Assembly (NCBI GenBank): GCA_964016885.1
Contig: OZ024742.1
Location: 22,692,001-22,756,000 of the forward strand
DNA: 64,000 nucleotides
Source: Eledone cirrhosa
Taxonomy: Eukaryota
Direction of reading: 5' to 3'
Part shown: positions 10,978 through 53,720 of the stretch, one piece after another
Numbering within the stretch: the first letter of the stretch is position 1
Layout: the number at the start of each line of letters is the position of its first letter
Program-made: the position numbers and the translations under genes
The notes under the pieces: model-generated
Told to the model about the DNA's origin: nothing
Database searches by the model: none
What the model saw: the letters and a program-made list of their open reading frames with translations, nothing else

Positions 10978-11104
10978 CCCACTGATGAATTATAGGAGCC
11001 CACTTGAATATATATCTATTGATGGTATACAAGCTCCTACATAAATTGGAATAATTTCACCCAAATTGTAGGAATCCTATAATGAAACGAGACGTCCGTC
11101 TGGG
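10978..11104 (+). ncRNA. Type I hammerhead ribozyme with 95-nt branched stem II
   Basis: Stem I ccca/tggg; core CUGAUGA 10982-10988; stem II attatagga/tcctataat (9 bp); GAAAC at 11084; GUC at 11098-11100. Confidence 0.8.
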
Positions 11105-11645
11105 AAGAGATATATTCGATATGTCTCATTTGAAATAATACAGTCAATTTTCCACGTAATACTTTTAGTTAGCACCCCGAACTCTTAATTGGGAATATAC
11201 TCACTTATTTCCTAATGTTTGTTGAGTAGGTTGGAATTTGGCCGGAGTATCGCTAAAAAGCTTTCTCCGATATTGTATTTATATATATATATATATATAT
11301 ATATATATATATATATATATATATATATATATATATATATATATGTATATATATATATGTCTATATGTCTATCTGTCTGCCTGTCTGTCTGTCTCTTTCT
11401 CTCTCTATCCATGTATGTATGTATGTATGTATGTATGTATTCTATATGTATTGTGTTAAGTGGTCGCCCTTCGGTGCTATTAGTAACGTGTAAGCCAGTA
11501 CAATCTGTCACATAGCTTGGTGAGAAGGGCGATATTTGGACACCTTGCGGGATGAAATACAAGACCCGGCAAAGGGCGGAGGAACTCAGCAGAGTGAACG
11601 GCCATCCAAATAGTACTTTTTCTGTTCATATTTTTCTCTTCTTAC

Positions 11646-12610
11646 ATGGGAGTGAAAGACCCCCAGTTGTTGTCATGTATCTACCTACCTATCCTCTGTC
11701 AAGCGGGCACAGCAATCAGTGGAGACTCCACTTCGACATTCTATAGAGGGTTAGTACTTTACAAGTGCGATGACGTGCTCGGGGAGACTCTAGGCGTTGA
11801 AGACGACGAGCTCACCAGTCTGTTCAGTAGGACATTCCGCCCAGGACCTATGGACAACTTCCAGAGGTCCCTGGCCTGGCAGTGCTACCGAGGAGCTGTA
11901 CCGGTTCGTGACAAGATCTACAGGCACGGACGCCCCGGCAGGGATCCTTCCAAGAGGACGTGTCCAAGATGCGCGCTGGACATTGAAACCGTCATGCACG
12001 CAATTGTACACTTCCCGGGCGTAAGCCACCTGTGGAACTACGCAGAACAACTGTTGTCGCGTATGGGACAAATCCAGTTGACTGCCGAGTCCATAGTAAG
12101 GATCAAACCGCCAGCCTCTTTCAAAAACGAAAGAGAGGCGGTTTTCCTCTGTACAGTGGCTATGGTGAAAGAGGTTATATGGTGGACGAGATTGAGAGGA
12201 CCGAGGACAGATGCCTTTCTCTCCGGACAACAATTGATTCCCTTCTTTGAGAATCACTTTAGAAGGAGAATCAGAGTGGAGAGAGAGGCACTGTACCCCA
12301 GTAAATTTACTGAAAGGTGGGTGAATGTGGCAAAAATGGCCCGAGTGATTGGGCCTTCTCTGTTTATAAGCCTGTAGGTTAAAAAAGAGAGCAAAAGGAA
12401 GAAAGGAGCACTTGCACAACACGCTCCTGGAGTTGAGGGTTGTTCTATCGACGGGGTATTAAACAACCCATTTGTGGCGCCTCCCCCTTATTAGGGATTT
12501 TGATTGTTGTAATTGTTTGTTCTATATTTTGTACACGACTGTATGTAAAATCCCCGGCATGTGTCTTTGTATTGTCCCCTTTTCTTGTGCGCCCTTGGTG
12601 CAAATAAAGA
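11646..12610 (+). mobile_element. 3' fragment of an L1/Tx1-like LINE ORF2 (zf-RVT C-terminal region) with 3' UTR
   Basis: ORF 11646-12377 has the CPRC..ETVMHAIVH zinc-knuckle pattern followed by IWWTR. Ends at aaataaa before (TATC)n. Confidence 0.75.
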
Positions 12611-12644
12611 AATCTATCTCTCTATCAATCTATGTGTCTCTCTA

Positions 12645-12745
12645 CTTATCTATCTATCTATCTATCTATCTATCTATCTATCTATCTATCTATCTATCTA
12701 TCTATCTATCTATCTATCTATCTGTCTATCTATCTATCTATCTAT
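12645..12745. repeat. (TATC)n microsatellite
   Basis: Direct sequence. Confidence 0.95.
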
Positions 12746-13242
12746 CCCGCCCATCACTGTCTGTCTTTCTCTATCTCACCCCGCTCCCTCTATATATACA
12801 CCTATATAAGACATCAATCACCGAAGGCCATAGGATTTATCTCCCTTAATTGCGTTCCTTACCTGAATATTTCGAAAGGGAGTTTATTTCTTGAAGTTGC
12901 GTTTATTATCTCGGGTGATGTGAGTATTTCGTTTACAATCACTATATTTAGACAACTCTAGTTGTACATACACACCCACACATACATACACATGCACATA
13001 CAACCACAAACACATACACATACGCACTACACATATACACACACACATACACACACTCACACACACATACATAGAAACACACACACATGCGCATATATAC
13101 ACACATACATACACACACACGCACCACACACATACACACGCACCACATACGCACCACGCACATGCACCACGCACATACACACATACACACACATACTATT
13201 CACATACACATTCATACACATTCTTATTCCCATTCTGATTTT

Positions 13243-13365
13243 ATTTGTTTCTATCACTTTCTTGCTTCCATATTGTTTCTATCACTTTCTTGCTACCATA
13301 TTGTTTCTATCACTTTCTTGCTTCCATATTGTTTCTATCATTTTCTTGCTTCCTTATTGTTTCCA
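13243..13365. repeat. ~28-bp tandem repeat, about 4 copies
   Basis: attgtttctatcactttcttgcttccat repeated. Confidence 0.85.
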
Positions 13366-13899
13366 TCTGTTCGTGTCCTGGAGAAAACGCTTGTTGTTGG
13401 GCTTAGAGAGGAACACCCCAGCAGGATTAAACATCCAATATGTCATGGCGGTGCCTCTATGCTTTCATCAGATACTTTTTGCTGAAAGGAATACAAGGCA
13501 ATTCTTGTATTCTACCATTTCTGCTTCTTCCTTGTATTTTTTATATACTGTTTTGACAAAACTTAAACAGGAAAGGCTTCCTTACACAACCCTGCACAAC
13601 AGCACAACTTAAACAGGAACTATTTTTTCCTTACACAACCCTGCAAAACAACAAAATACAACGAGCTAAACTAGCTAAAATCATGCAAGAAAAAATATAA
13701 TTACTCAGTTAAAAGTAAATAAAATTAAAATTAAAACCACAATTAAAAAAACACAAAAAACTCCTTCATACCATTGAGCCTTTAACGAGAAACCTAGTCC
13801 ACACAATATCCGAAACCTGATAGAATATATACAATGTTTGCTTACACATTATATAAAGTAGAAGAATACACAATGGTTCCCCTTAATTGTATTTCAAGA

Positions 13900-51295: not shown

Positions 51296-51988
51296 AACAA
51301 CAACATTCCAATAAAGGCAACACTATCAACAAAACTGGGAACAGTTATGTTACAATGTTTCGTTTGATTTCGTATCCATGATATTTTAGTGAGCCGATTT
51401 GGTGTATCCATTACACACATACACATCAGTACGGCTTTTATTGTTTTTATTAAGTTCTCTTAAAACGAGATATAGAGAGTGTTTAAGAAAGTGGGAGTGA
51501 GCGAGTGAGAGAGGGAGAGAGAGGAGAGAGAGAGAGAGAGAGAGAGAGAGAGAGAGAGAGAGAGAGAGAGAGAGAGAGAGAGAGAGAGAGAGAGAGAGAG
51601 AGTGTGAGAGAGAGAGAGAGAGGAGAGAGAAAGAGAGTCTTTCTTACACAAAAGCGGAACCAGTTCATTGGAATTTACATACACTCTGTAAATCTGTATG
51701 TATGTCTCTATCTAGTTGTGTCTGTGTTCTAGTATGAGTATCATTGCATGAGTGGATATGTATGTTTTGACTTATATGACCATATCTTTCATCTATATGT
51801 ATGTATATGCAGTTATTACAGTCTAAATTTTGACTGTACTTGCAATTTTCTAATCTGCCAGCATTTTCTGGTTCTGTGAAGCCATCTTCTCAAGTGCCCC
51901 AATATATATATATATATATATATATGTATATATATATATATATATATGTATATATATATATATATATATATGTATATATATATATATA

Positions 51989-52153
51989 GGAAAATGTTTA
52001 ACCCCGACGGCAGAGCTCAAGAAATAGCTGTCGAAACGGCTTGAGCTCTGTCGTCGGGGTTAAACATTTTCCTATTACCCAATCTACTACTCTAAGTATT
52101 GAGTACTCTGGTGCGTTATGGTCCATCTGGTTCCTTACAACACCTCCTTCGTT
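51989..52153. mobile_element. Short fold-back PLE-B-like pLTR remnant
   Basis: Short minus arm 51989-52021 and long plus arm; (TA)n flanks. Confidence 0.85.
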
Positions 52154-52341
52154 ATATATATACACATAACATATTAGAATTTTACAAAAATCCTTTTTAT
52201 ATGAATACATAATTTTGCCACAAAAGAGTTTAATATGTTAAATCATTTTTCCTAGTGATATTTTATCTGTATATTTATCCATTCATTGAGATGTCTAAGT
52301 ATTAGAGTCAAGTAACTTTTTAAATATATATATATGTTAAG

Positions 52342-52915
52342 TCACTTTTGAGCTGACTCTTGGGAGGCTCCCATACAGCTCTGAGTTTTTCATCCTCAGT
52401 GTATACTGATTAATGTTCAGAGCCATCCTCAGCATTCTCGTGTAGCACTCATCCACCATCTGTGTGAGTTTCTTGGTCTGTGTCCAAGTCTCAGCCCCAC
52501 ACTCATCGACACAGTCTCTACCTCTTGCATCAAATCCTCTGACTCCTTCACTGTATTTGTCACCAAAACTATGTCGTCGGCAAATTCAGCATCTGATATC
52601 TTTTTCGCCCTAACCTCCCGCTCTGAGCCGGTGCTACAGTAAAGCCAAGAGTCAGCTCAAAAGTGACACAGAGGAGACTGAGGTTAGCTGCACATGCTCA
52701 CCGACATCCAGAGTTGACATTGCACTCAGTGCTCCTGTGGGAGCCCCTACATAGACACACTGGAAGAGGAAGACCAAGGTTAACGTATGTTGATGCGCTA
52801 AGGACAGACACTGGTCTGTTGGGGACGCGGGACATGGCAACGATAATGACGGACAGAGACTGCTGGAGAGAACTCGTCCATGGATCTTGGGATTTTACCC
52901 GCCCTAGATAGATAA
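52342..52915. mobile_element. RTE-like LINE with a 5' inversion and 13-bp TSD
   Basis: The minus part encodes ISDAEFADDIVL; the plus part encodes RRLRLAAH..GRGRPRLTY.D; gata tail; atatatgttaagt on both sides. Confidence 0.85.
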
Positions 52916-52928
52916 ATATATGTTAAGT

Positions 52929-53148
52929 ATTTCCGTGGAAAAAGGTAAAAGAAAGAAAAGTGTTTATGTGTAGTACAGAGCTATTTAATTATGTAATAAA
53001 CAACACAATATACTTATTCCATTACCCAAGATATTCAAATAAAGATTCCTTCTGATGAACGATATCAGACGTTTCTGTTAGGATCGTCTAACTTCGTGAA
53101 ACCTTGGGTAATGGAATCATTATTTTGTGTTGTTTATTACATAATGAA
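52929..53148. mobile_element. Fold-back element containing an HHR
   Basis: attatgtaataaacaacacaa..attccattacccaag is inverted at 53103-53145. Confidence 0.8.
53046..53116 (+). ncRNA. Type I hammerhead with 39-nt stem II
   Basis: uuccuu CUGAUGA acga..guuag/cuaac..ucgu GAA ACC uug GGU A auggaa. Confidence 0.82.
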
Positions 53149-53395
53149 ATATATATATATATATATATATATATATATATATATATATATATATATAAGT
53201 TATTCCGGGTTCAATCGGCGATGAAACAGTTCTAGTCCTGTAGAAGCTTTCTCTCTCTCTCTCTCTCTCTCTCTCTCTCTCTCTCTCTCTCTCTCTCTCT
53301 CTCTCTCTCTCTCTCTCTCTCTCTCTCTCTCTCTCTCTCTCTCTCCCCCTCTCTCTCTCTCTCTCTCTATATATATATATATATATATATATATA

Positions 53396-53720
53396 GTTAA
53401 AGGATTGCAAGGTAAATTCGTCCGTAGGCGTTATGCCGGTTGAGAACTCAATGCTCGCGCAGAGCAGAGTATAATATTATAAAGAACGAAGAATCAGTGT
53501 TACATCATCTCATTAACATATTACATACGTTTCTCCGTCGATCAACTCGAGGCAAGATCTGTTACAAATCGAACCCGACTCTGCAGATAACTGACGACCC
53601 TTCGACTGCAGAGTCGGGTTCGATCTGTAACAGATCTTGCCCCGAGATGATCGACGGAGAAACATATGTAATATGTTAATGAGATGATGCAAAACTGATT
53701 CGTCTTTCTGTTTAATATTA
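53396..53720. mobile_element. Fold-back element in (TA)n containing an HHR
   Basis: 53470-53586 is inverted at 53606-53722; the left arm is ~75 bp longer. Confidence 0.87.
53587..53674 (+). ncRNA. Partly decayed type I hammerhead with 61-nt branched stem II
   Basis: CUGACGA at 53591; cccuucga/ucgacgga; inner gaucug/cagauc; GAAAC auau GUA at 53659-53670. Confidence 0.6.

Follow-up and report, generated by a model that had tools for sequence, protein, structure and literature searches.

Type I hammerhead motifs with long, structured stem II arms at the ends of Penelope-like repeats in Eledone cirrhosa

A 64,000-nt stretch of Eledone cirrhosa DNA (GenBank assembly GCA_964016885.1, 3.0 Gb; contig OZ024742.1, positions 22,692,001 to 22,756,000), called the window below, is a patchwork of satellites, microsatellites and pieces of Penelope-like elements (PLEs). 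Six type I hammerhead motifs in the window, numbered S1 to S6 in coordinate order, belong to high-copy repeat families, and each carries 39-115 nt in domain II. We consider it fairly probable that these are hammerheads at the ends of Penelope-like repeats in which stem II has grown into a structured arm, likely a folding scaffold, which in S1 forms a predicted pseudoknot clamp, and that the ribozyme would cut as a dimer. The long arms are under selection and widespread in the genome. Ribozyme and element are both known; the long-armed form is a structural variant of the known PLE hammerheads and is new as such.

The six motifs are as follows (pLTR stands for pseudo-long terminal repeat and ORF for open reading frame).
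10973-11104, + strand: S1 hammerhead; C3 at 10982; 4-bp stem I; domain II 10989-11083, 95 nt, three-way-branched; G12 at 11084; cleavage predicted directly after C11100; loop III with the palindrome GACGUC.
35485-35596, + strand: S2 hammerhead, in the 3' pLTR of a Hydra-clade PLE; C3 at 35489; domain II 35496-35580, an 85-nt irregular hairpin; additional copies at 31130-31241 (-) and 32304-32415 (+).
41474-41567, + strand: S3 hammerhead; C3 at 41479; U3-A8 core; domain II 41486-41539, 54 nt; 5-bp near-palindromic stem III; additional copies at 35880-35973 (-) and 14663-14756 (-).
43698-43851, - strand: S4 hammerhead; C3 at 43841; 10-bp stem I; domain II 43720-43834, a 115-nt long hairpin; C.A at 10.1-11.1.
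53046-53116, + strand: S5 hammerhead; C3 at 53052; domain II 53059-53097, 39 nt; old family; no ORF linked.
53587-53676, + strand: S6 hammerhead; C3 at 53591; domain II 53598-53658, 61 nt; junction-damaged copy; inverted partner at 53512-53585; another copy of the family at 45213-45308 (+).

A first-pass annotation of the window had reported six type I cores with inserts of these lengths, and positions and lengths agreed with it; for S4 the motif and its 115-nt insert were found, but 43698, the position given, is the low end of stem I. Stem I is closed in general, as annotated, except that its first pair is broken in the S6 copy, which sits at a fold-back junction and has a 5' side unlike its family, and that the S3 copy has one mismatch and the S5 copy is mismatched too. 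The S3 mismatch is absent from 22 of 28 parsed copies, and stem I is perfect in 13 of 19 parsed copies of the S6 family (30 fetched). Among copies fetched for their likeness to the window copy, the core was intact in 30/30, 29/30, 28/30, 30/30, 29/30 and 19/30 for S1 to S6. Position 10.1-11.1 is G-C in S3 and A-U, U-G, C.A, A/G-U or U-A in the others, so that five of the six families depart from G10.1-C11.1; mismatches at this position are also known in natural hammerhead variants. Self-cleavage after H17 is predicted. Stem III with its loop is a perfect palindrome in S4 and S6, has a palindromic core in S1 and is a near-palindrome in S2, S3 and S5. Because the stem III loops are mostly palindromic, cleavage as a dimer is likely; a palindromic loop III characterizes dimer-type PLE hammerheads (PMC4209133, PMC6765202).

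The structure of the arms was assessed by folding and by covariation. Each insert closes with a helix beside the core, as annotated, and folds better than its dinucleotide shuffles (z of -3.6, -1.8, -4.0, -5.4, -2.3 and -1.9 for S1 to S6). Diverged relatives were gathered with nhmmer; a covariance model of S1 added no relatives to these in 1.6 Mb searched. RNAalifold applied to the S1 relatives (seven rows, about four lineages) recovered the full hammerhead with a three-way domain II. Both sides had changed in 14 of 34 pairs, which none of 500 shuffles reached, with 0-3 in slid controls. The inner hairpin, which lies outside the descriptor's selection, was double-changed in 6 of 9 pairs. For the S6 relatives (14 rows), 14 of 26 pairs were double-changed, a count reached by 4 of 500 shuffles, with 4-8 in slid controls; stems I, II and III all show double changes in the S1 and S6 relatives. 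The S2 insert is homologous to that of F92 (z 4.9), one of several further families from fetched loci that are named by domain II length (F50, F75, F78, F92), and 7 of 16 outer pairs are double-swapped between the two families. Covariation, which had been proposed as a check, was thus found in S1, S6 and, across two families, S2, and the proposal that PLE-type type I hammerheads carry a selected, structured, long domain II is supported. The description of the arms as often branched did not hold: one of the six, S1, is branched, and a branched fold considered for S5 was ruled out by its family alignment. Among the six inserts, weak likeness was found only for S2-S4 and S2-S3 (p 0.02 each, uncorrected for 15 pairs). 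Natural deletions within the arm occur in S2 and S4 copies. The unpaired A30 and G62-A63-G64 of the S6 domain II are invariant; they make up an internal loop of tandem purines, with AG facing GAG, that is flanked by covarying helices (alignment A2) and is a candidate tertiary or protein contact. A kink-turn at this loop was rejected by eye.

For S1, one family of the six, the arm likely forms a predicted pseudoknot that would clamp the ribozyme. Its two strands are placed as follows.
10973-10976, + strand: 5' strand GGGC of the predicted pseudoknot, directly outside stem I; retained in four subfamilies.
10998-11001, + strand: domain II strand GCCC, in the unpaired junction after the 9-bp stem II.

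All four S1 subfamilies have the unpaired GCCC after the stem II strand and GGGC outside stem I, although some members of one subfamily have GGGU or GGGA instead, and blast alignments between subfamilies begin at GGGC. The helix pairs in 78-96% of cells in the S1 subfamilies. The best helix between the 12 nt 5' of stem I and domain II positions 5-24 began at position 10-12 of domain II for 10 of the 11 S1, F78 and F50 representatives, and none of 22 non-cognate flanks equalled the score of any S1 representative's own flank. Four F78 subfamilies retain a 5-8-bp helix three bases from stem I; at the best register 75-100% of cells are paired in their copies, versus 17-68% at other registers, and three pairs are double-changed between subfamilies (A-U/G-C, G-C/A-U, C-G/U-A/A-U). 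The same two strands are paired in the pseudoknot of bacterial type II hammerheads, where the strand that directly follows the stem II shoulder on its 3' side pairs with the strand beside loop I and holds stems I and II together, and where breaking the pseudoknot lowered rates 20- to over 100-fold (PMC3088659). By analogy, the predicted helix of S1, F78 and F50 may have a similar effect on rate. Stem II of type II is often 2-3 bp and open. Here it measures about 9 nt, one or two further hairpins close it, and it belongs to a type I hammerhead of the dimer type in an animal retroelement. The stem-length analyses of that study excluded repetitive type I motifs (PMC3088659).

The frequency of such motifs was compared with chance using a long-loop descriptor (domain II up to 200 nt) that was written after the sites had been seen. 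It gave 6 matches in the window versus a mean of 0.08 in 100 local dinucleotide shuffles. S1, S2 (2 copies) and S4 were among them; the window copies of S3, S5 and S6 were missed because of their stem I mismatches. An independent sample of 120 evenly spaced 10-kb stretches (1.2 Mb), searched at slightly lowered thresholds, gave 90 matches versus 2-6 in each of 8 shuffles (about 26-fold) and, for a domain II of at least 40 nt, 23 versus 2.6 (about 9-fold), so that the shuffle comparison proposed with the annotation came out well above chance in both searches. By domain II length, 22 matches had 8-19 nt, 19 had 20-29 nt, 26 had 30-39 nt, 6 had 40-49 nt, 4 had 50-69 nt, 9 had 70-99 nt, 3 had 100-129 nt and 1 had 130-200 nt (shuffles 1.4); 49 of the 90 had at least 30 nt. 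By extrapolation, the excess at 40 nt or more scales to about 50,000 copies genome-wide. Every site belongs to a high-copy repeat family (765-2404 first-look candidates per family), and young families have copies that are 99% identical with intact cores. Because domain II lengths run continuously from 13 to 115 nt over about 40 clusters, long arms are a tendency rather than a discrete class.

That continuum fits a neutral origin of the arm, in which the constant fold-back duplications of PLEs supply its length, selection needs just some helix that closes stem II, and the inner content is idle. Most inserts are indeed unrelated, inverted junctions are frequent, and the internal deletions in S2 and S4 copies point the same way. 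We nevertheless think a neutral origin rather unlikely, as it does not explain the covarying inner hairpin of S1, the conserved unpaired motifs (GCCC in S1, the AG/GAG loop in S6) or a flank helix that is fixed in position and covaries in F78.

To place the motifs in their elements, the surrounding repeats and ORFs were compared.
32633-34855, + strand: S2 element ORF, Hydra-clade PLE (reverse transcriptase, RT, plus GIY-YIG), with RWK, DKT and CxCx5C motifs.
37171-39345, - strand: S3 element ORF, Hydra-clade PLE; a stop near its start breaks the frame.
10740-11279 (ends approximate), + strand: S1 repeat, a 5'-truncated copy of a 702-nt unit that forms a tandem array elsewhere; no ORF linked.

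S2, S3 and S4 occur as pLTR-ORF-pLTR tandem units of 3.16, 3.6-3.7 and 5.5 kb around RT/GIY-YIG ORFs, that of S4 being an 823-aa Hydra-clade ORF at another locus (L193). All three ORFs have RWK/RWR, DKT and CxCx5C, together with a GIY-YIG at the C terminus. RWK, DKT and CxCx5C define the Hydra clade (PMC8557442), to which the three elements are assigned by motif rather than by a reference tree. The S4 unit is long for this clade, with a microsatellite-rich 2.6-kb 3' untranslated region that separates ORF and hammerhead. The elements had been annotated as six unrelated ones, which does not hold: the S2, S3 and S4 elements are related, since their ORFs are 38-47% identical, and the S2 insert is homologous to that of another family besides its weak likeness to S4. 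Hydra-like ORFs also lie upstream of F75 and of families with 31- and 36-nt arms. The S1 unit is non-coding and forms a three-motif tandem array at locus L017 with one hammerhead per unit; F78 repeats at a spacing of about 600-610 nt and F50 at about 520 nt. An ORF search upstream of F78 found no consistent link, and a 3.4-kb F78 spacing considered as an element unit turned out to be (TA)n. PLE-type ends were seen as tandem pLTRs, inverted 5'-truncated copies, a one-end tail and (TA)n insertion.

Metazoan non-LTR retrozymes likewise consist of tandem, non-coding units, each with a single type I hammerhead (PMC7229834, bioRxiv 10.64898/2026.07.22.740005), and are reported with units of about 300-390 nt; S1, F78 and F50 are longer and have a large domain II. 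The likeness of S1 to retrozymes is at the level of the DNA units. Long arms as the reason why Naiads 'lack' hammerheads were discarded as an explanation, the ORF-linked families being Hydra; the three cephalopod Naiad ends in the available part of Craig File S5, checked by eye, had no long-arm type I motif. At two of these ends GAAA precedes CUGAUGA. Two further observations concern the families. The core CCGANGA (U4C) is found in several subfamilies of F75/F79 (L199, L233, L288, L098, L269) and of the S6 relatives (L072, L189, L224, L263) and is apparently a fixed natural variant. The hammerhead of a young family with 724 first-look candidates (L185:2676-2900 (+), L348, L364; copies 98-100% identical) is about 200 nt long; its domain II measures 79 nt and its domain III about 90 nt, and a 6-bp pseudoknot is predicted for it.

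The 5' ends of truncated copies were mapped relative to the ribozyme core, and for S3 they drew attention to one motif.
41520-41524, + strand: TYAGT motif within the S3 domain II; 5' ends of short copies cluster here (A at 41522); candidate transcription start.

Counted from C3, the 3' ends of short S3-type copies lie at +103 or +186 (the PLE tail), while their starts are mostly inside domain II. In a random, core-anchored sample, 12 of 57 fragments started 17-19 nt before G12, at the A of TYAGT; 4 others reached further within the motif and 7 past it, and about 5 that started 21-23 nt before G12 are gapped full-length copies. Each of the five S3-type sequences in the alignment contains TYAGT. 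Run X1 shows loose contig ends at 41518 and 41522 and a depth step there, an observation from contigs only; contigs of X4, a run of unclear kind, cover S3 and do not show strand or ends. For S4, 5 of 7 starts, a count resting on seven fragments, fell at +51 to +60. Starts did not pile up in the S1-type family (0 of 7), nor in most other families. The motif resembles an initiator, and the S3 pile-up is perhaps a transcription start. PLE start sites lie within pLTRs (PMC2377424, PMC8557442) and PLE reverse transcription starts internally (PMC11167929), so that short S3-type copies may extend from the 5' end of the RNA to the point where reverse transcription began. These observations could also mean that the arm is long mainly as the carrier of a DNA-level element, a pLTR core promoter or transcription start, with the RNA hairpin as a compromise that keeps the ribozyme foldable. 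We regard this as improbable: the S3 and S4 starts, the retained TYAGT and the loose ends favour it, as does the pLTR location of known start sites, whereas the S1-type family and most others lack pile-ups, and stalling of the RT at a structure could yield the same pattern. Short S3-type fragments without the 5' half of the core gave 54 matches in the 1.2 Mb; in the window such fragments, often fold-back pairs, lie at 43489-43593, 52019-52068, 60823-60882 and 10552-10602. Within 41486-41562, CGGCU and AGCCG each occur twice, so that the GAAA core strand can be taken up in an alternative hairpin, a possible folding switch.

Slightly less probable still is an arm that acts as a protein-binding or allosteric domain by which the PLE protein switches cleavage on. 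Engineered stem II aptamer switches exist, and the invariant unpaired purines of S6 would suit a bound protein. Cutting by the anole PLE hammerhead requires the protein of its element, but the binding region there lies at the pLTR-ORF junction (PMC11167929); moreover, related Hydra RTs bear unrelated arms and other Hydra families have short ones. No evidence was found for the RT-binding platform or regulatory switch that the first-pass annotation had suggested. That the motifs are non-catalytic relics or chance matches, as the non-canonical 10.1-11.1 pairs, weak stems III and damaged S3 and S6 window copies might suggest, is very improbable given intact cores in families whose stems I, II and III were rewritten with compensatory changes, the same in young, nearly identical copies, and the excess over shuffles for long inserts as well as for all matches.

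The arm as folding scaffold could be explained by loop II being a site of free expansion, at which lineages lengthen the arm independently while a stable helix closes on the core. This closing helix may offset the non-G-C 10.1-11.1 of five families. The canonical contact between loop I and loop II would be lost; in S1, F78 and F50 its place would be taken by a helix of 4-8 bp that joins the first unpaired domain II strand to the flank 5' of stem I. Short palindromic stems III would pair two copies, with cutting on tandem or read-through RNA. The S3 arm overlaps the likely start of its own transcript, and a whole ribozyme would then be present only in read-through RNA.

Several points weigh against this account. 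Few independent lineages are represented in the alignments (about 4 in S1, 2 in S2, 3 in S4), the structures were derived from the same alignments used for covariation, and covariation is thin in S3 (6 of 29 pairs, mostly from one sequence), S4 (6 of 44) and S5 (2 of 10). Shuffle p values for single representatives of S1, F78 and F50 span 0.004 to 0.52; because of this spread, it is position and conservation that carry the case for the pseudoknot. In S1 the pseudoknot is conserved with none of its pairs double-changed, and the flank can instead form a small hairpin that competes with stem I. Pairing registers were set by eye; that of F78b was off by one and that of F50 was mis-set, which makes its count uninformative. 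The helix search found nothing consistent in S2, S4, S5 and S6 or in F75, and the S3 helix is weak. The tertiary-contact substitute suggested by the annotation thus has specific support, as a predicted pseudoknot, in S1 and two outside families, but not in most of the window sites. No ORF lay consistently upstream of S1, S5 and S6 in the fetched loci. Cleavage by the anole PLE hammerhead is not needed for insertion in vitro (PMC11167929), and the self-cleavage proposed here is a prediction from sequence.

A broader claim would be that of an overlooked, abundant animal class (about 50,000 copies with arms of at least 40 nt, extrapolated), in which a type-II-like pseudoknot clamps a type I retroelement ribozyme with extra domains and in which some Hydra elements start transcription inside the arm and only read-through RNA cuts. 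We put this forward tentatively, as a possibility.

The motifs share with the known PLE pLTR hammerheads (PMC4209133) the pLTR location, the type I topology, the U3-A8 variant, the short palindromic stem III and the many solo and inverted copies; helix II is longer than canonical in those as well, at 7-8 bp. The published descriptor allows a stem II of 3-7 bp and a loop of 3-10 nt (PMC4209133 Fig. S7). Because domain II is thereby capped at about 26 nt, it cannot find the six sites, which are 1.5 to 4.5 times longer, and the annotation was right that short-loop descriptors miss them. The published motifs keep G10.1-C11.1, as does one of the six families here, and the available part of PMC4209133 describes no pseudoknot. 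With Hydra-clade PLEs (PMC8557442) the elements share RWK, DKT, CxCx5C, a C-terminal GIY-YIG, (TA)n targets and a hammerhead near the 3' end; hammerheads of that clade are likewise often mismatched at 10.1-11.1, where U.U is common. The listed Hydra hammerheads have a domain II of up to about 26 nt in elements mostly below 3 kb (PMC8557442), versus 54-115 nt and 3.2-5.5 kb here. A literature search, which was not exhaustive, turned up no account of PLE hammerheads with long arms or pseudoknots as a class. The annotation had called the class overlooked; a long helix II is not entirely without precedent, since the 7-8-bp stems (PMC4209133) have been reported and one spike-moss PLE-X is listed with a domain II of 54 nt, flagged there as deviating (PMC8557442 File S2). 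Rfam gave no match at gathering threshold in 12 loci; in the window, the matches listed (150 of 164) included no hammerhead family, only low-complexity miRNA-type ones, the short PLE motifs being absent too. The comparison that had been proposed thus returned no hammerhead model among the matches listed.

The window contains more PLE-type hammerheads with a 12-34-nt domain II, some of them in inverted pairs, at 30767(-)/30851(+), 29130(-), 57422(-)/59346(+) and 61784(+). At 39227-40644, where the S3 ORF starts, fragments of a non-Hydra PLE (GIY-YIG) are arranged as an inverted pair. Positions 1-8808 are a 71-nt satellite (123 copies, 92% matches), and 18426-28230 is a 9.8-kb array of 61-nt tandem repeats whose minus strand would encode Pro/Thr-rich mucin-like repeats; a weak 'New glue' Pfam match adjoins this array.

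PLE hammerheads have been described as minimal, slow and of unclear use, and the published pattern is blind to a domain II above about 26 nt. With 49 of 90 matches at 30 nt or more here, a large share of animal ribozymes may be missing from censuses. RNA engineers, who graft aptamers at the same site, can also make use of natural hammerheads whose arms reach 100 nt. A base-paired clamp, if true, would explain how these motifs could fold without the canonical loop contact and predicts faster cutting, and a start site inside the arm, if true, would provide a simple criterion for when cutting by a PLE ribozyme is possible.

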